From the NCBI RefSeq assembly GCF_011045215.1, contig NZ_CP049201.1: 64,000 nucleotides of DNA; one strand, 5' to 3'. Position 1 is the first letter of the stretch; every line of letters begins with the position of its first letter. The translations under genes and the position numbers were made by a program. Source of the DNA: Escherichia coli. Its GTDB lineage: Bacteria > Pseudomonadota > Gammaproteobacteria > Enterobacterales > Enterobacteriaceae. Below, one piece after another: positions 23,440 to 38,840 of the stretch. The notes under the pieces were generated by a model, which was not told the origin of the DNA, did no database searches, and saw only the letters and a list, made by a program, of their open reading frames with translations.

Positions 23440-24151
23440 GGACCCGACTACATGATTTACCCGTTAACTTAATACGGCTCACGCCGGAACCCCTTCGGAA
23501 AAATCCTTTCTGCTTCAGCGAGTGAGTGCTGTGGGCACTCAGCGGCGCTGCAAGAGGGATTAAACGTTGGGTTTTCATCTGACGGGTAAAAATAATCTAC
23601 ATATATCTGTCGTCGGGGGCGTGAGCCGGTGCGTAGCACTCTCTCAGAAAAATTCCTGAAGGGGTTTTATCTGAAATCTGGAAACTACCTGGCTTTTGAA
23701 AAAAGGAAGTGGTAATGCAATCGATCGGACTCAACATTGCAACAGCGTAAGCTGTTTCCAGTATTAAAAGAATAAATAGTTGTCATTTTAAAATAAAATA
23801 TTTTCAATTTTGTATTGATTTAAATTTTAAAGCTGATAGTACTTAATTATAAAAACAAAAAAGGAGAGGGTTATGAGTAATATTTTTGTTTCTTCTCAGG
23901 AAGAAAAGTTTATATTTGTTGTTGATAAATATATAACACAGCATCGCGACAGTGTTAATAACAATATTTTTTACAGAAAACTTTATGTGCTTTTCGCTGG
24001 ATACCATCTGAAGTATTTTTATTCACGGGCGCAATATCGCAATTCGTGTTATTGCGTATTCCGCTCTATTCGATCACGGATTGGCATCGAAGTTCGATCA
24101 GCGATTCGCATCCATTCGATCAACCGGGAACTTAACTTTTTCTACCGCTTT

Positions 24152-24907
24152 TTAACTCGTTTTTTCGCTGCTTTCCACTGTCGGGGGATTTTTCCTCAGG
24201 GACTCTCCCTGAAGGACCACTCTGTGTGAGTTATGTACCAGTCTGTCCAGGATGGCATCTGCTGTTGTTGGGTTCTCCATCAGACCATGCCATTTATCTA
24301 CCGGGAACTGGCTTACCACTATCGTGCTGCTTTGTCCGTAACGATCCTCTGTGATCTCCAGAAGGTCATTACACTGGGCGTTACTTAACTGTTCCAGCCC
24401 CAGATCGTCCAGGATTAGAACCTGTATTTTTTGCAACTGTTTCAGATATTTCAGCCAACTGCCATCAACACGTCCCTGAGCCAACTGTTCCAGTAATCGC
24501 CCGGTTCTACAGTACCGGACGCTGTATTTCTGTCGACATGCCTGTTCGCCCAGCGCATTGGCTATCCAGCTCTTACCGCATCCTGTCGGACCGGTTATCA
24601 GTAGGTTTTTCCTGTGGATTATGTAGTGGCCGTTCAGCAGTTCCCTCATCTGTTCAGCCCGCAGACCTCTTGAGGCCGGATAACGCAGCCCTTCCGGTGT
24701 TGCCTGATATTTCAGGCAGGCATTTTTTCTCAACCGTGCCACACGACTGTTTTCTCTGCTCAGAAGCTCGTCATCAACCAGCAGTGTCAGCCTTTCCTCG
24801 AACGACAGTTCGTCGTAAGTCTGAGGCGTTTCCCGTTGCCGTATCAGGCTCCCGGCCATCGCCGGGAGTTTCAGTTGGGTCAGTTTGTTTAACAGATTAT
24901 CACTCAT
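24152..24907 (-). CDS. istB: IS21-family helper ATPase IstB
   Basis: ORF 24152-25150; likely start MSDNLLNKL (24907); Walker A GPTGCGKS and typical IstB layout; overlaps the end of istA. Confidence 0.85.
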   Translation of the reverse strand: MSDNLLNKLTQLKLPAMAGSLIRQRETPQTYDELSFEERLTLLVDDELLSRENSRVARLRKNACLKYQATPEGLRYPASRGLRAEQMRELLNGHYIIHRKNLLITGPTGCGKSWIANALGEQACRQKYSVRYCRTGRLLEQLAQGRVDGSWLKYLKQLQKIQVLILDDLGLEQLSNAQCNDLLEITEDRYGQSSTIVVSQFPVDKWHGLMENPTTADAILDRLVHNSHRVVLQGESLRKNPPTVESSEKTS

Positions 24908-24923
24908 ACGGTTGTTCCTTCTG

Positions 24924-26489
24924 TCAGTGGTAGTAGCCAGGACCACGCAGGTTTTCATGCTCTGAAGCATATGCCGGATGTTGTTCGCCCTGGCGGGATA
25001 ACGGAAGCTCAACGTTATCCCGATGATGACGCAGCAGATTGTCGATAAAGCGTCTGTCCGGGGCGTTATAGTGCAGGGCAACGTAACAGGCCTTTTCCAG
25101 CCGTTCCGGGCCGTATTTTTTCTGAAGTGCCAGCAGACCCAGGACTGCACGGTAAGCCAGCTCCGGATGGGGTTTGGCTTTCAGCATGGATTCAACCACC
25201 CGGCCTGTGGACGGACCTGTACGGTTTCCCTGCTCGATAAGGCGTTCCGGTGTCCATGTCCCATGCCGCCGGTGGCGTTCTGGCATGTGAAGCGGATTGG
25301 TTGTGTGTTTATATTCATGTGTGCTGCGCGGATGTTGCGCCACACACTGCCCCTTGTGCCAGAGCTGTACCACCGACTGCCCCACCTTCAGTGACAGACG
25401 CTGACCGACCAGTTCGTGTGGAACGGAGTACCAGTGACGGGCATATTCAACGTGGTAGTCAGGGCCAACCTTCACGGCTTTGTATTCCGTGTATTCATAA
25501 GGCTCCAGAGGCAGCGGAGAGAGTGCTGGTGCATCCAGCATGCGGAAGCGTTCTGCGCGGGTTTGATTACCGTATCCCTTCATTGGTCGGTTATTCATGT
25601 CCGTCAGCAACTCCCGAAGGCGTGCATTCAGCGCCCTGAGCGTGTGGAAGGTTTCATTACGGATGCGGGCAAGAAGCCATCGCTCGACGATGAGGACGCC
25701 GTTTTCTGCTTTTGGTTTATCTTTAGGTTTGCGCGGGCGGGCCGGGATAATAACCGTGCCATAGTGCTCAGCCAGCGCCTGATAACTGTCGTTGATGACA
25801 GGCTCATAGCGATCGGCTTTTTTCACTGCGCTTCTGAGGTTATCGGGGATGAGCAGCTTCGGTACGCCGCCCAGGAAGGTCAGGCAACGGCTGTGGGCAT
25901 TTAACCATGACATCATGTCCTGACCTTCGCACGCTTCAACATAGGTATAGTTGGACGCCCCCATTACAGCCACGAAGATTGCCACGCGGCGTATCTCTCC
26001 GGTGTCCGGATTAATAACAGGGACCGTAGGACCACAGAAGTCGATAAAGAGCTTTTCGCCAGCACGATGCTCCTGTCGCATGGAGAGGCGTCGCGTTTTT
26101 TTCCACTTCCGGTAGCAACGGCAGAAGTGTGAGTATCCCATCGCTTTGTCACCCGCCTGTGCCTTGTATTCCATCCACAACAGTTGGCGCGTCACGCCAG
26201 GTTTTCTCATTTCCGTATCGAAGTACAGCATGTCAGGCATAACAAGCTCTGACGCAGAGGTGTCTTTGGGCGGGAAAATGAGTTTCTCCAGCGTGTCATG
26301 GGATATATCAGCAGGTAATGGCCATGACAGAGAAGAGGCTTTGAAGCGGGCAAGAACCTCAAAAACGGTTGAGGCGCTGATGTGTAACGTCAGTCCGATA
26401 CAACGGTTAGTCAGCTTCTTATCGAACTTGAGCTGAAGGATCTTAAAACAAGTTTCCATAGTGCTCCTGGATTTTCTCTTTTTGGACAT
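24924..26489 (-). CDS. istA: IS21-family transposase IstA
   Basis: ORF 24924-26591; likely start MSKKRKS (26489); N-terminal HTH followed by integrase-like catalytic core; paired with istB. Confidence 0.8.
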   Translation of the reverse strand: MSKKRKSRSTMETCFKILQLKFDKKLTNRCIGLTLHISASTVFEVLARFKASSLSWPLPADISHDTLEKLIFPPKDTSASELVMPDMLYFDTEMRKPGVTRQLLWMEYKAQAGDKAMGYSHFCRCYRKWKKTRRLSMRQEHRAGEKLFIDFCGPTVPVINPDTGEIRRVAIFVAVMGASNYTYVEACEGQDMMSWLNAHSRCLTFLGGVPKLLIPDNLRSAVKKADRYEPVINDSYQALAEHYGTVIIPARPRKPKDKPKAENGVLIVERWLLARIRNETFHTLRALNARLRELLTDMNNRPMKGYGNQTRAERFRMLDAPALSPLPLEPYEYTEYKAVKVGPDYHVEYARHWYSVPHELVGQRLSLKVGQSVVQLWHKGQCVAQHPRSTHEYKHTTNPLHMPERHRRHGTWTPERLIEQGNRTGPSTGRVVESMLKAKPHPELAYRAVLGLLALQKKYGPERLEKACYVALHYNAPDRRFIDNLLRHHRDNVELPLSRQGEQHPAYASEHENLRGPGYYH

Positions 26490-26625
26490 TGACGTCTCCA
26501 CTGGTTTAAACACGGCAATGGAGACTGTGGTGAAAAGAGTTAATTCCCGGAGTGACTGGCGAATTCCAATCAATGATCGGAAGTATGCCAAATCGTGATC
26601 GATTGTGATGCCAACATATCCTTAC

Positions 26626-28100
26626 CCATAAATCCGAGTGATGTTATTCTGTTGATAAATTAACCATAATTTAGAGGAACTATGGAAAACTGGGTTATTA
26701 AGGAGCTGGAATCTCTGAATGTTGGTGATATCAGGCTCGAAAAGCGAATAAAGCACGTTCTCAGTGTGCTTAGCCGTTCACCAAAGGAAAGTATTCCCGT
26801 ATCCTGCCGTACCTGGAGTGAGACAAAAGCTGCTTATCGTTGCTTTTCCAGTGATAAAATTTCAGCCGATAAAATCATGGCTCCCCATAAGAAAAATATC
26901 ATCGAAAGGACTAAACAGTTTAAACGGGCTCTGGTTTTACAGGATACGACTGAACTAAATTATTCTGGTCAAAAAAAGAAACAGGGCGTCGGTCCCAGAC
27001 GACATGAAAATGAGCGAGATTTGTTTATTCACCCTCAATTGGTTATAAGTGATTCAGGTATTTGCTTAGGGGTTTATGATGATTATCAATGGTTCAGAAA
27101 AGAACTCAAAACTCAGAAACAAAGTCGTAAAGAAATAACTAATGATTCACTTCACAGGAAACATATCAGTGAGAAAGAAACAGGACGGTGGATAGAAGGA
27201 TATAAAAAAGCAACAGAACTGGCTAGGTCCTGTCCTGATACCCAGATAATTTCTGTTTCAGACCGTGAAGGTGATATTTACGACCTCTTTGAGAGTGCAG
27301 AAAATGAAAGTGGGATAAAGGCTGACTGGCTCGTAAGAATGAAGAGCATTAACCGGGCTATACTGAATTCATCAGGAAAAAGAGACTCATTACTCCTGAA
27401 TGAAAAAATGATGCAGATTTTGCCACAGCAGATAATTGAGTTTACCCTTCCGGAAGGACGAGGACAACCTTCCCGCAAAGTCCAGCAGGAGCTACGCTTA
27501 GCAAGGTTGACGCTACATCCACCCACCGGTCGAAGAGGAAAGTTACGTTGTTCTCCGGTAACGGTAACTGTATTACTTGCAAAGGAAATAAATGCTCCAG
27601 AAAGTGTCCAGCCATTAGTATGGTGGCTAATGAGTAGTGTACCTCCAGAAAAGCTGACGGAACCCGCACAGCTTATTCAATGGTATTTATTACGCTGGCA
27701 GATTGAAGTTTTCTTTAAGGTATTAAAAAGCGGATGTCAGGTTGAGAAATTACAACTTGAGACATTTGAACGCACAAGGAACTGTCTGGCCTTATACCTT
27801 ATAATCTCATGGAGAATACTTTATCTTAGCTCATTGTATAAAATGGTTCCGGAGGAACCCTGTGATTTAATTTTCGAAAAGAAAGAATATGAGTATCTCT
27901 GGATATTGGTAGAGAATACGCCTCCACCTGAAAACATACCGAATATAAGAACGGCGGTTTTAATGCTTGCAAGATTAGGAGGATATCTGGCAAGAAAAAA
28001 TGATTCGCCTCCAGGCCCTAAGACTATATGGTCAGGATTAACACAATTAATGCTGTCAATTAATGCCATAGAAATAGCCCAGAAAACTTGTGGGTAAGGG
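26626..28100 (+). mobile_element. IS4-family insertion sequence nested in the IS21-family left end
   Basis: Single transposase ORF flanked by imperfect terminal inverted repeats (CCTTACCCATAA... / ...TTGTGGGTAAGG); both flanks carry IS21-type repeat motifs; boundaries approximate. Confidence 0.6.
26682..28097 (+). CDS. IS4-family DDE transposase
   Basis: 471-aa ORF containing the IS4 Y-x2-R-x3-E-x6-K signature (YLLRWQIEVFFKVLK). Confidence 0.85.
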   Translation: MENWVIKELESLNVGDIRLEKRIKHVLSVLSRSPKESIPVSCRTWSETKAAYRCFSSDKISADKIMAPHKKNIIERTKQFKRALVLQDTTELNYSGQKKKQGVGPRRHENERDLFIHPQLVISDSGICLGVYDDYQWFRKELKTQKQSRKEITNDSLHRKHISEKETGRWIEGYKKATELARSCPDTQIISVSDREGDIYDLFESAENESGIKADWLVRMKSINRAILNSSGKRDSLLLNEKMMQILPQQIIEFTLPEGRGQPSRKVQQELRLARLTLHPPTGRRGKLRCSPVTVTVLLAKEINAPESVQPLVWWLMSSVPPEKLTEPAQLIQWYLLRWQIEVFFKVLKSGCQVEKLQLETFERTRNCLALYLIISWRILYLSSLYKMVPEEPCDLIFEKKEYEYLWILVENTPPPENIPNIRTAVLMLARLGGYLARKNDSPPGPKTIWSGLTQLMLSINAIEIAQKTCG

Positions 28101-28195
28101 TATGTGATGCCAAACTGTGATCGGAGATGGATGCCAAATCATGATCGATTCGAATGCCAAACTGCGATCGATTCAGATGCCATTTTGCAGTTATC
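28100..28195. repeat. Displaced IS21-family subterminal repeat block (3-4 copies of ATGCCAAA..TGATCGATT)
   Basis: Read directly: GTGATGCCAAACTGTGATCGG, GGATGCCAAATCATGATCGATT, CGAATGCCAAACTGCGATCGATT, CAGATGCCA. Confidence 0.6.
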
Positions 28196-28576
28196 ACGTT
28201 GATAATATCATGCAGATGTTTATGGGTGTCGTTTCTACCCTGAAGGCCCCTCTGCTCAGGCAACTCGCAAACAGTGACACATTACTGCATTGCCTGAATT
28301 CGCTCGTGAATTATATTTCAGGCAATCTGGATGAAGCAGAGCACATTTATGCTGATTTACTGGCACAGTATGAAAAGAAACGCATTGCACGTTCTCTGGC
28401 TTATACACCACCAGGATCCGTGGTCAGGAAAAGGCTGTGAGGCAGCGGATACGTACTGGACAGGGGATGGCAGAGTGACATAAAAGCAGTCGTTTCCCGC
28501 AAGACATTACCGGGCATTAAAAAGGCAGGAGCCACCGGTCTGGTGTCCTGCCTGGCGGGATTGTTTTACTGTGGTC

Positions 28577-29820: not shown

Positions 29821-31050
29821 TTATGGTGCAGGATAGGGGTTATTTTTAACTAATTGTTCTTTAATGGGATTTGTTGTCATGGAATGACAGGGTGTCAGAA
29901 GATGCAGGTGCAGGATTTGGTGGAAAGGATGTGCAGTGGCATGTAACAGAGACATGCCCCTGCGCCTGAGAAGTGCCACAATATGGCCGAGCAATACAAA
30001 CCACGAATGCAGACGACGCTGGCGGGGTATCTGACGAGCTGTATTGTGCAGTTTGCTCCTGAGTTGAATGACACCCACTGTTTCCTGTTGTCTTTCCAGA
30101 CGAATTTTTTCTTCAAGCTGAAGGATTTTCTCCAGAATCGTTTCCCGGTTTGCAGCCTGTTCTTCAGGCTCGCATGATGGCACTGGCACTGGCACTGGCA
30201 CTGGCACTGGCACTGGCACTGGCACTGGCACAGTCTGCTGTTGCTCTTTTTTCAGTAAAGCCAGGTGCTCTGGTGTAAAATCAATCTGTGTTTGCAGAGA
30301 AGACCAGCCATACTTTTTTCCAAGCTGAGACGCTTTAAAGGCAATGCCCTGGTACTGAAATGAAAAGCCGTTCATTTTTCCCGTTGAGGCGATATTAGGT
30401 TTACAGTTCACGCCTTCCTTTTCCAGCATAGTGATAAAAGTCAGCAAATCAGGGCGGCCGGTTAACGCATTATCAATCAGGCTCTGCAGAGTGGACCTGG
30501 GGCAGGGAGTTGTCGTTCTTTCAGCCATCATCAGCTCGTTGCGGGAAGGCTTTCTTTTCTCCTGACTATGACTACTGATTGCAGATGTGGTTTGAGTGAG
30601 TTTGTGGACTTTCTCCAGCTCGCTGATAATCCGGGTACTGATAAGATTTTCATTTTTCCCAAGGTACAGCTTCCCACCGACCATGTTAATTCTGTTAGCT
30701 ATTATATGGATATGCTGCCCGTCCGAATCATCGTGCATGATATAGCAGCGAAGATGGGTTTCAGTGAATCCCATCCGGGTCATATAATCGTCAGCGAATG
30801 CCGCCCATTGTCTGACTGACAGTGTTTCTCCCTTTGGCAGGCGAAGCGAATTATGCCAGACAGGTTTGGCGACACCGGGGCGCAGTAGTCTTGTGCCTTC
30901 AAATTCACTGATAAGTTCAGCAGCAGTGCTTCCCGTCATGTTGCCACCGATAATATAAGGCGTGATTTTGTGGTGAGATCCTGACTTAAGGCTATAGAGA
31001 ACAACACCTGCGAACTGTTTACCCCGCTTTATTTTCTGCATACCTTTCAT
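29821..31050 (-). CDS. Mobilization relaxase (MobA/MobL-like) with internal (VP)n linker; C-terminal tail of doubtful authenticity
   Basis: Three-histidine relaxase-type motif HDDSDGQHIHIIANR; start overlaps the mobC-like stop (ATGA at 31047-31050); low-complexity tail after the VP repeat. Confidence 0.65.
   Translation of the reverse strand: MKGMQKIKRGKQFAGVVLYSLKSGSHHKITPYIIGGNMTGSTAAELISEFEGTRLLRPGVAKPVWHNSLRLPKGETLSVRQWAAFADDYMTRMGFTETHLRCYIMHDDSDGQHIHIIANRINMVGGKLYLGKNENLISTRIISELEKVHKLTQTTSAISSHSQEKRKPSRNELMMAERTTTPCPRSTLQSLIDNALTGRPDLLTFITMLEKEGVNCKPNIASTGKMNGFSFQYQGIAFKASQLGKKYGWSSLQTQIDFTPEHLALLKKEQQQTVPVPVPVPVPVPVPVPVPSCEPEEQAANRETILEKILQLEEKIRLERQQETVGVIQLRSKLHNTARQIPRQRRLHSWFVLLGHIVALLRRRGMSLLHATAHPFHQILHLHLLTPCHSMTTNPIKEQLVKNNPYPAP
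30178..30231. repeat. Perfect hexanucleotide tandem repeat (TGGCAC)x9 inside the relaxase gene
   Basis: Read directly; encodes a run of 8-9 Val-Pro dipeptides on the minus strand. Confidence 0.95.
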
Positions 31051-35600: not shown

Positions 35601-38600
35601 TCATTTTCCTAATTCTCCAGCTAAAAGTTCAGCCTGCTTCAAAACAGTCTCTGTGGCGAGCAATGACATATCAGGCGGATAACCATATTTTTTGAGCAGA
35701 CGTTTTACCACCACGCGAATTTTTGCTCTTGCTGCTTCTTTCACTGTCCAGTCAAGACTGACATTGTTGCGGATAGCCTCCGTAAGTACGACTGCCAGTT
35801 CTCGTAGTTTTTCCTTTTCCATTAACTCGCGAGCACTGTCGTTATCTGCAACAGCAGAATAGAAGGCATATTCATAAGCGCTGAGGTTTAACTGGCTGGC
35901 AAGGCTGTCAGATTCCTGGATAGTCTTGGCAAGCTTGATTAGCTCATCAATTACCTCCGCTGCTGTCAGTACCTTGTTCTGGTAGCCATTGATTGCAGAG
36001 GTCAGCATATCAATCAGTTTTTTGCCTTGGGTGATACTTTGATTCGAGCGAACTTTAATCTCGTCAGAAAGCAGTTTTTTAAGCGTTTCCAAAGCAATAT
36101 TTCTGTGTTGGTAATCCTTCATTTCCTGAAGGAATTCTTCAGAAAGAACGGAAATATCTGGCTTTTGTATCCCAGCAGCGTCAAAAATATCAACAACTTT
36201 ATCGGTAACCAGAGCCTGATCGATAGTCTGTTTTACCCGAACTTCCAGACTGTCATTGTGTTCTTCTTCTGATCCGTCTGAGTTTTCAGTAAATTTATTC
36301 AGTCTGGCTTTTACTGCCTGGAAGAATGCTACTTCGGGTGCCGCTTCCATTGCTTTATCGTGCGGTGTCGCCAATGCAAATGCCTGCGACAAGGCTGCAA
36401 CCGCAGCCAGGAAACGCATTTTACCTTTACCGTTATCCAGCCCTAAAATATGGTTTTCTGATTCAAGAATAATTGTCAGGCGTTGTGAAGTAGTTGCGGC
36501 AAAGTAAGCTTTGTAATCGTAGCCATGCATCATGCCTTCCAGGATTTCCAGCTTTTCCTGCATGAGCGTTACAGCTTCTTCCTGAACCTCAGCAGGATCT
36601 CCACGTCCACCTGCATCAGAGTAAAAGGAGAGGGCTTCTTTTAAATCAGAGGCAATGCCCAGATAGTCAACAACCAGACCGCCTATCTTATCTTTATACA
36701 CACGGTTCACACGGGCAATTGCCTGCATGAGGTTGTGGCCTTTCATTGGTTTGTCGATATACAGCGTATGCATGCTGGGAGCGTCGAAGCCGGTTAACCA
36801 CATATCACGCACTATCACCAGTTTCAGCTTGTCGTCGTCATCCTTCATACGATTAGCCAGAACCTGACGTTCTTTTTTTGTGGTGTGGTGTTTAGCGATT
36901 TCTGGTCCGTCAGCAGCAGAAGAGGTCATGACGACTTTAATCACGCCATCATTTAGATTATCGCTGTGCCATTCAGGTTTTAACTCTATGATTTCTTTAT
37001 AAAGTTCAGCAGCAATACGACGGGACATGGTGACAATCATGCCCTTGCCATGATCGGCATTAGATTTTAAGCGCTGTTCAAAGTGCTGAACCATATCCGC
37101 CGCAATAGCTTTAATACGTTTTGAACTGCCAATCAAACCTTCGATTCTGGCCCATTTAGACCGTTCTTTCTGGGTAAGCGTCAGCTCGTCTTCGTTAAAC
37201 TCATCGTCGAAGTCTTCAATTAGCTGGCGACCTTCGTCACTGATGGCAATTTTGGCAAGACGGCTTTCATAGAAGATACGCACGGTTGCACCGTCTTCTA
37301 CGGCCTGTGAGATATCGTAGATATCAACGTAGTTACCAAAAACAGCAGGTGTGTTTACGTCCGTTTTTTCTATGGGGGTTCCGGTAAAGCCAAGATAGGT
37401 AGCATTGGGCAAGGCATCACGCATATATTTGGCAAAGCCGTAAACGGTGCGTTTACCTGTTACGTTGCCTTCGCTGTCTTTCACGTCAACTTCTTTGGCG
37501 CTGAAACCGTATTGTGAACGGTGGGCTTCATCAGCGATAACGACAATATTGGTTCTGTCTGACAACAACTCATAGATATTGCTGCCATCATTAGGCTGGA
37601 ATTTTTGAATAGTGGTAAACACCACACCACCAGAGGCTACGCGCAAATATTCTTTGAGTTCTTCCCGGTTGTCGGCCTGTTTTGGTGTCTGACGAAGTAG
37701 CTAGGTCGCGGAAGAGAACGTACCGAATAGCTGATCATCCAAATCGTTACGGTCAGTAATCACAACAACTGTCGGATTATCCAGCGCCAGCACAATTTTC
37801 CCGGTATAAAACACCATCGAAAGCGATTTACCGGAACCCTGAGTATGCCAGACTACGCCCGCTTTGCGATCTCCGGTTTTTTGCGCATTAACAAGATCTT
37901 TACTGTTACGTCCCTGCTGGCGCAGTGCCACTTCGGCAGAGGGGGAGTCCGCATTCACCGCTGAGGCACGAATAGTGGAAAGAACTGCTGCATTGACCGC
38001 GTAGTACTGGTGATAAGCCGCCATTTTTTTAACAGTACGGATACTGATAATCCCTTTGCTGTCTTCATGTTTGCTGGCCTCAAACACGATAAAGTGGCGG
38101 ATCATATCCAGCAGCGTTACAGGATTAAGCAACCCCTGTAATAAAACTTCAAGCTGTGGTTGGGTACTGGTGGCTTGCGTTTTACCGTTAGCAGTTTTCC
38201 ACGTCATATAACGACTGAAATCGGCAGAAACCGTCCCCGCTTTGGCTTCCAGCCCGTCAGATATCACATTAAAAGCATTGTAGTTAAACAGACCGGGGAT
38301 TTGGTTCTGATAGGTTTTAATCTGATTATAGGCACCTGTTACCGTAGCATTTTCGTCAGCGGCATTTTTAAGTTCGATAACGACTAATGGCAGGCCGTTG
38401 ATGAATAAAATAAGATCAGGTCGGCGGGTATGATTGCCTTCTTTGATGGTGAGCTGATTAATGACCAGAAATTCATTATTAGTGGGATCGTTAAAGTCGA
38501 TCAGGCAGGCCAGCTCTCCTTGTGTATTACCATCCTTACTGACTTCGATATTGATCCCTTCGGTCAACAGGCGATGAAAGGCCAGATTGTTTGCCATTAG

Positions 38601-38840
38601 ATCAGGTGTGCTGATCTGCATCACCTGTTTCAGGGCTTCCTCACACTTCTGTTCACTAAGGTGCGGATTCAGGCGTTGTAGAGCAATACGCACCTTATCT
38701 TCAAGGATAACCTGCTGATAGCTACGTAACGGATTGATTCCACTGGGTTCAATGTCCGGGCCGTAAACATACTCATAGCCCAGCCCTTGCAGGTGCTCAA
38801 TTGCCATTACTTCAATATCGGATTCGGTCATCTTTGCCAT
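35601..38840 (-). pseudogene. hsdR: Type I restriction enzyme R subunit HsdR interrupted by an in-frame amber codon
   Basis: ORFs 37701-38840 (N-terminal, helicase motif I GSGKS) and 35601-37646 (C-terminal) are in the same frame, separated by a single TAG at 37701-37703 (...[33 protein letters not shown]...). Confidence 0.8.

Follow-up and report, generated by a model that had tools for sequence, protein, structure and literature searches.

Does an insertion sequence (IS) found inside the end of another one owe its place to luck, or to a choice of target? The question is raised by a stretch of Escherichia coli DNA of 64,000 nucleotides (contig NZ_CP049201.1 of assembly GCF_011045215.1), the whole of which was analysed and is called the window here. 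In it a Tn5-like element of the IS4 family interrupts the subterminal repeat array at the left, istA-proximal end of ISSso4, an element of the IS21 family whose left-end repeats we number from L1 at the tip to L6. A sequence-only reading had proposed that an IS4-family element was inserted in the left terminus of an IS21-family element, and the finding that each of the two has its own target-site duplication bears this out. The order of events was that ISSso4 entered a gene of 141 codons, and that the Tn5-like IS then entered L4, the fourth IstA-type repeat of the left end, by cut-and-paste with its target cuts staggered by 9 bp. The best explanation overall, which we regard as very probable, is that the second of these steps was not a random insertion but a targeted one.

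Anatomy of the nested insertion

The outer element lies on the minus strand at 24053-28189, has the ends TGCG...TGCA and measures 4137 bp with its insert; the nested feature had been placed at 24055-28195, and its limits are slightly corrected here. A megablast search with 23800-28500 found hundreds of unbroken copies of 2639 bp, which the NCBI Prokaryotic Genome Annotation Pipeline (PGAP) labels 'IS21-like element ISSso4'. Compared with the copy on pINV of S. sonnei (L003; three-digit numbers denote the loci compared), the element of the window runs from TGCGTATTCC... at 24053 to ...CCATTTTGCA at 28189, with 1 mismatch in the 2562 nt of the ISSso4 body (99.96% identity). Its right end (IRR) is identical in sequence to the ends of PGAP-labelled ISSso4 copies, and its IstB agrees with the WP_001282649.1-type annotation of ISSso4 IstB. 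Judged by this near-identity to labelled copies, the outer element is a copy of ISSso4. The marks of the IS21 family are present as well, namely consecutive istA and istB genes and ends of the form TGCG.../...TGCA with six left and three right repeats at a spacing of 22-24 bp. This spacing matches the 23-bp phasing of the IstA repeats in IS5376 (PMC10122671), and the repeats are predicted IstA sites here. The istA gene has an alternative upstream ATG at 26489 that would extend the protein to 521 aa. Every host copy of ISSso4 carries a perfect duplication of its own, of 5-7 bp, and the 5-bp GTTAT of the window falls within the 5-7 bp seen for other copies and within the range of 4-8 bp of the IS21 family. 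Intact copies of ISSso4 have the same ends, istA and istB, and the copy of the window differs from them by a foreign IS of 1490 bp in repeat L4.

This inner IS begins with CATATCC and ends with GGGTATG, the inserted segment reading CATATCCTTACCC...GGGTAAGGGTATG, and it is flanked by two copies of TGATGCCAA, a sequence that is present once in intact ISSso4. Like IS50 and Tn5, it has a single open reading frame (ORF) for a transposase with an N-terminal Tnp_DNA_bind domain (PF14706, 1.2e-16), a DDE domain (PF01609) with a YREK signature and a C-terminal dimerisation domain (PF02281, 5e-14), short imperfect terminal repeats (18-nt arms, 89% complementary) and a 9-bp duplication; the Y(2)R(3)E(6)K motif YLLRWQIEVFFKVLK can be read in the translation, and the Pfam search found no domain beyond the Tn5 architecture. 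In contrast, its terminal repeats are unrelated to the outside and inside ends (OE and IE) of Tn5. By every feature tested, the inner element is assigned to the IS50 (Tn5-like) subgroup of the IS4 family, although PGAP annotates it under no more specific name than 'IS4 family transposase'. All three transposition genes, istA, istB and that of the inner transposase, are intact.

To which element the repeats belong can be read from intact copies. With as many as 3 mismatches allowed, the window has five sites for the motif ATGCCAAANNNTGATCGATT, at 26585, 28107, 28131 and 28154 on the plus strand and at 24068 on the minus strand, all of them within the feature; shuffled sequences gave 0.33 on average and reached five in none of 100 trials. 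A separate repeat search recovered the same family at 22-24 bp spacing, plus inverted copies beyond istB. The earlier description of IS21-type binding-site repeats on both sides of the IS4-family element, and inverted beyond istB, is thus upheld by both scans. In the intact copy L003 the equivalent of 26614 is directly joined to 28114 and all repeats are contiguous; because intact ISSso4 copies hold the whole series in this way, the repeats are part of the IS21-family element rather than of the IS4-family element. The comparison with reference copies that had been suggested as a check therefore gave the repeats to ISSso4, and the intact 2639-bp copies refute the alternative ownership. The other candidate, a single composite element, was ruled out since the IS4-family element occurs with other flanks.

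Recurrence of the inner element in IS21-type ends

One account of this anatomy would be that the IS4-family element fell by luck in the left terminus of the IS21-family element and inactivated that end. In its favour, the nested structure itself is real and shows separate duplications for both elements. However, the same IS recurs at the same two repeats in other places: it was found in 13 IS21-array contexts versus 1 non-IS21 context (L010), IS21 end arrays account for about 1e-4 of a genome, and diverged relatives behave likewise (see below). Copies taken as the same element are 100% identical over a 1489-bp query (26615-28103), among them those of E. coli C5, 357900 and 52F4, and one old copy is 96.9% identical. 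In the L4 repeat of ISSso4 it stands divergent from istA in the window and in L017, and co-directional with istA in L016; in L2 it is co-directional with istA in L002, L015 and L004/L022/L025 (the old copy, in an afa/dra island). L023 has the left junction at L4 at a third location. In L008, L013/L014 and L026 the inner IS occupies the homologous repeat of ISEc12, another IS21-family element. Insertions thus recur at the same position at different loci, which is the behaviour of an IS that targets the ends of other elements, and the distribution indicates that the nesting is targeted and not due to chance. We regard luck as a most improbable explanation.

The inner IS is rare, with any match in only 79 of 5,426 complete E. 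coli genomes, and its exact transposase was present in 364 blocks of the collection. On plasmids it was seen as four fragments only; a query with the composite matched ~500 plasmid records, of which the best was ISSso4. When one genome per species was scanned with a 26-nt degenerate pattern of the IS end, a single match was obtained, in Leptospira, with no IS behind it. We take this match as a chance one, and the inner IS is absent from the species representatives scanned. The k-mers CATATCCTTACCCATAAATCC and CATACCCTTACCCACAAGTTT mark both ends of the inner IS.

A second alternative is that the 4137-bp composite of ISSso4 and the IS4-family element was moved as a unit by IstA and IstB into the 141-codon gene, the inner IS being a hitch-hiker. 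A perfect GTTAT duplication flanks the composite, which keeps three terminal repeats on its tip; moreover, the same configuration (L4, divergent) is present at another locus with a duplication of its own (L017, TGCAGT), and a form lacking ~47 bp is present at two loci or more with perfect duplications (CAGCAT in L001, ACTGTA in L024+L019). But the composites of the window and of L017 reside on different ISSso4 alleles, which are separated by 2 single-nucleotide polymorphisms. In genome GCA_014105865.1, the source of L017, three ISSso4 copies share one allele (26022A/26024G) and carry the insert in three different configurations, while the ISSso4 of the window is of a different allele and has the same configuration as L017. 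Because one allele has three configurations and a different allele shares one of them, these are independent insertions rather than copies of one ancestral composite, and this favours repeated de novo insertion. A configuration would be spread as well if IS copies underwent gene conversion or if IS4-family copies recombined with each other, and the near-absence of the IS4-family element from plasmids also speaks against movement of the composite. The duplications fit both accounts and the polymorphisms lean to repeated targeting; we therefore regard movement as a unit as unlikely, and targeted insertion into a resident ISSso4 remains our preferred reading.

Three arrangements among these loci deserve separate mention. 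The left junction at L4 is combined with a right junction at L2, with ~47 bp missing, in L001/L009/L011 and in L024+L019; this L4/L2 composite is found at two or more loci and in two ISSso4 variants, each time with a perfect outer duplication, and composite transposition, gene conversion and recurrent recombination are candidates for its origin. In L012 (3896-5461) the inner IS lies between two inverted L2 tips, being flanked on both sides by inverted 38-bp left-end tips of ISSso4 with no duplication outside; recombination between copies in opposite orientation probably gave rise to it, and it resembles a pseudo-element with an IS21-type left end on either side. In L010 (3934-5423), the inner IS joins DNA of the add/ydgJ side to atoE without a duplication, and in one of the two flanks a GATC stands at 14 nt. 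Either two non-IS21 insertions have been rearranged with each other here or the metagenome contig is a chimera.

The proposal that the insertion had probably inactivated the left end is not supported. Counted from the tip, the interrupted repeat is the fourth, and three complete repeats (28114-28189) stay joined to the terminus, which also counts against luck with inactivation. IS5376 IstA, the sole biochemical benchmark, needs two complete terminal repeats, with catalytic subunits on the first and structural ones on the second (PMC10122671). Because L1-L3 are still joined to the tip and two repeats are needed by IS5376 IstA, inactivation is unsupported, and by this analogy the L4-interrupted end is probably still recognisable by IstA. 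The insertions in L2 of other genomes (L002, L015, L004) part the terminal repeat from the second; by the same benchmark they would split the essential pair and cripple the end, and here the account of luck with inactivation finds some support. Expression is a separate matter. In IS21, istAB is driven by a junction promoter that arises where the two ends abut and to which the left tip contributes, and the 1.5-kb insert probably uncouples istAB from that tip. A consensus scan for promoters and terminators around the junctions gave promoters no better than those of shuffled sequences and was uninformative for istA expression.

The GATC register and a proposed target rule

Relatives of the inner transposase were found in similar places. 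One with 84% identity (L034) lies in an ISSso4-like array with the duplication TGATGCCAG, and one with 74% identity, at the hchA locus of E. coli, has an ISSso4-like flank (L005, L020). For a relative of 57% from environmental metagenomes (L027-L032), five of the six places lie in the left array of an AT-rich member of the IS21 family (IstA 518 aa, IstB 240 aa), and either orientation occurs. Directly upstream of istA, inside an IS21-type end, lies a 52% relative (L036-L038), and relatives of 60%, 55% and 50% (L039-L047) abut IS21-type tips or phased GATC repeats. The 45% relative (L044) has the GATC offset on one side and adjoins an IS3-family end. Thus, the habit of inserting into IS21-type left ends is kept down to ~50% transposase identity. 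A 40% relative (P0107, L035) was without the terminal repeats of the clade and without IS21 or GATC context, and because this context is missing there, the behaviour is not common to all Tn5-like elements.

Complete sites have the form GATC-N5-(duplicated bases)-N5-GATC. In 15 of 24 distinct half-sites GATC stands exactly 14 nt from the IS end, the chance of GATC at a given offset being 1/256 per half-site. Two relatives, those of 57% (L028/L029) and 50% (L045), have target duplications of 7 and 8 bp instead of the 9 bp of the inner IS; GATC is found at 12 nt with the 7-bp duplication and at 13 nt with the 8-bp one, which brings the half-sites that fit N5 to 19 of 24. The distance from GATC to the duplication is therefore constant (5 nt) across duplications of 7, 8 and 9 bp, and the stagger may follow the spacing of the target GATCs. 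From target to target, the sequence of the duplication itself differs widely (TTGGCATCA, ATAACATCG, ATAATTA, TAACGGCTG and others). Read from the sequences, the GATC spacings along the left array of ISSso4 are N19 (L2), N20 (L3), N19 (L4) and N18 (L5), with N20 and N18 in the right array. Insertions occupy only L2 and L4, the N19 pairs of the left array, and the N18 and N20 pairs are unused in both end arrays. The L2 pair of the window copy (GATC-N19-GATC, 28143-28169), which was also recovered by a pattern scan, is unoccupied.

These regularities suggest a mechanism in which a dimeric Tn5-like transposase would read GATC ~5 bp outside each of the two target cuts. The GATC-containing IstA-binding repeats of this IS21 subgroup, phased at ~23 bp, would supply paired half-sites, and in the left array of ISSso4 only L2 and L4 offer the N19 spacing. 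Insertion in such arrays would be harmless to the host, and the inner IS might accumulate there as in a safe harbour. In its widest form, the proposal is that a conserved clade (~45-100% identity, terminal repeats CAYATCSTTACCCAYAA) picks its targets by GATC 5 bp outside each cut, with a stagger of 7, 8 or 9 bp set by the GATC spacing and Dam methylation possibly sensed, and that its members are obligate 'hyperparasites' of IstA-binding arrays of the IS21 family. We put this general form forward tentatively, as a possibility with rather less than even support.

Several observations weigh against this reading. Two more GATC-N19-GATC pairs in the window (9624 and 45559) are unoccupied, which implies ~100-200 such pairs per genome, and ISEc12 holds further N19 pairs without an observed insertion; because such pairs go unused, a GATC pair is not the whole signal. 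Most half-sites lie in IS21 arrays with periodic GATC and hence are not fully independent. Few half-sites outside IS21 obey the GATC rule (the atoE side of L010, and L044), and the other side of L010, L033 and the far sides of L044/L045 do not. Moreover, survivorship must add to the enrichment, as insertions elsewhere are purged.

A third alternative is that the transposase is drawn to DNA bound and bent by IstA (or IstB) rather than to the DNA sequence, with the GATC register only a mark of the position of IstA. The duplicated bases vary, yet insertions keep to one point of the IstA repeat unit; bare GATC-N19-GATC pairs in other places show no visible use, and IstA-bound ends are strongly curved (PMC10122671). 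However, GATC-N5 half-sites also occur outside IS21 arrays (the atoE side of L010, and L044 with the 45% relative), only N19 pairs are occupied in the left array though IstA should bind all repeats, and the Tn5 architecture accounts for every domain of the transposase. Guidance by a bound protein is improbable in our judgement, and the targeted insertion of the Tn5-like IS into L4 is the reading that we carry forward.

Host locus, comparable elements and meaning

The features of the nested insertion and of its host gene are collected in Table 1. Joining 23873-24052 to 28195-28440 restores an ORF of 141 aa that is identical to WP_000065074.1 of E. coli 19AR1724 at 140 of 141 positions. In that strain the same island has an empty site, which reads ...TTCGTGTTATCACGTTG... 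with a single GTTAT, and the gene is whole; the reconstructed junction is 99.8% identical to it over 1058 bp. The sequence-only reading had the IS21-family element truncate an AT-rich ORF at 23873-24229. Disruption is confirmed, but simple truncation is not: the gene is interrupted and resumes at 28195-28440, as the empty-site genome shows, and 24053-24229 of that ORF is read-through into ISSso4 beyond codon 60. ISSso4 therefore moved into a hypothetical gene for 141 aa, on a chromosomal island of E. coli type, and duplicated 5 bp of its target. A Pfam search with the 141-aa protein gave no match.

Table 1. Positions in the window of the two elements, their duplications and the interrupted gene
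Feature	Position	Strand	Details
5' part of 141-aa hypothetical gene	23873..24052	+	codons 1-60; split by ISSso4
GTTAT, left copy	24048..24052		5-bp target-site duplication of ISSso4
ISSso4 right end (IRR)	24053..24122	-	tip TGCGTATTCC and three IstA-type repeats (GATC-containing, ~23-24 bp apart)
istB	24152..24907	-	IS21-type AAA+ helper ATPase, 251 aa, intact; PF01695 5e-60; NF038214 5.5e-75
istA	24924..26459	-	IS21-family DDE transposase, 511 aa (PGAP start), intact; rve + Mu-transpos_C_2; NF033546 1.4e-85
Inner left-end array	26563..26614	-	L6 (26563-26579), L5 (26585-26604), inner copy of split L4 core
TGATGCCAA, left copy	26606..26614		9-bp target-site duplication of inner IS
IS4-family (Tn5/IS50-like) IS	26615..28104	+	1490 bp; imperfect terminal inverted repeats CATATCCTTACCCA / CATACCCTTACCCA
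Transposase gene of inner IS	26682..28097	+	471 aa, intact; Tnp_DNA_bind + DDE_Tnp_1 + Dimer_Tnp_Tn5; NF033590 1.5e-103
TGATGCCAA, right copy	28105..28113		9-bp target-site duplication of inner IS
Outer left end	28114..28189	-	rest of L4, complete L3 (28131-28150), L2 (28154-28173), terminal L1 (28177-28189, tip ...TTTTGCA)
GTTAT, right copy	28190..28194		5-bp target-site duplication of ISSso4
3' part of 141-aa hypothetical gene	28195..28440	+	codons 61-141 and stop

The surroundings are those of an E. coli-type chromosomal island with an AIDA-type autotransporter, a SIR2-like protein, ankyrin proteins, a relaxase and type I restriction genes, and a search of the plasmid collection with the left flank gave weak, irrelevant matches only; the window is chromosomal and of E. 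coli type. Three further observations were made in it. The type I restriction R subunit (HSDR_N + SWI2_SNF2 + T1RH-like_C) at 35601-38840 on the minus strand is present as two ORFs in the same frame, 37701-38840 and 35601-37646, which suggests an in-frame stop and a pseudogene. A stretch of ~250 bp at about 19494-19741 matches istB of ISSen3, another IS21-family element, with ~85% identity and is probably an IS remnant. The relaxase-domain ORF at 29821-31050 on the minus strand contains a (Pro-Val)n run and encodes 409 aa in the window versus 407 aa in E. coli 19AR1724, so that the repeat probably varies by one unit.

Tn5 itself has only a weak target consensus within and next to its 9 bp (Goryshin et al. 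1998, cited in PMC2266710), whereas the clade of the inner IS has a fixed register to flanking GATC and resides nearly exclusively in IS21-type end arrays. Similar in behaviour is IS231A, a cut-and-paste member of the IS4 family which prefers the terminal region of another transposon, Tn4430, and this preference has reportedly been tied to a consensus together with DNA bending (Hallet et al. 1991 and 1994, cited in PMC2266710); IS231A differs in its subgroup, its consensus and its duplications of 10-12 bp, and it is not known to have a link to IS21 or GATC. IS5075 and IS4321 likewise use a single insertion position within the ends of a different transposable element, and IS5075, which resides in the ends of Tn21 and occasionally in look-alike chromosomal sites, has been read as using a safe harbour (PMC8269217; Partridge and Hall 2003, cited there). 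The resemblance is one of behaviour only: these are DEDD elements (IS1111/IS110 family) that make no duplication, insert in a single orientation and target the inverted repeats of the Tn3 family, whereas the inner IS has a Tn5-like DDE transposase, its clade makes duplications of 7-9 bp and inserts in both orientations, and its targets are the subterminal repeats of the IS21 family. A review of the IS4 family (PMC2266710) does not mention IS21, and the literature on ISSso4, ISEc12, nested IS21/IS4 elements and Tn5-like elements with GATC, as far as our incomplete coverage of it goes, which does not extend to ISfinder, where the inner IS may already be named and its specificity recorded, holds no description of such targeting. 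The habit of the clade of hunting IS21 ends thus appears to be undescribed.

Both elements and the locus are ordinary, and the interest lies in the conserved and simple target rule that is proposed for the clade of the inner IS. Targeting would explain why 'IS4 family transposase' is annotated recurrently next to istA, and it brings a DDE element of Tn5 type into the small group that hunts the ends of other elements. The natural insertions in L2 versus L4 offer a way to ask how many terminal repeats IstA needs in vivo, and, for work on mechanism or engineering, the inner IS provides a relative of Tn5 found in nature whose site selectivity is its own. If the general rule is true, it would give a naturally site-selective relative of Tn5 and an undescribed relation of one element living on another.

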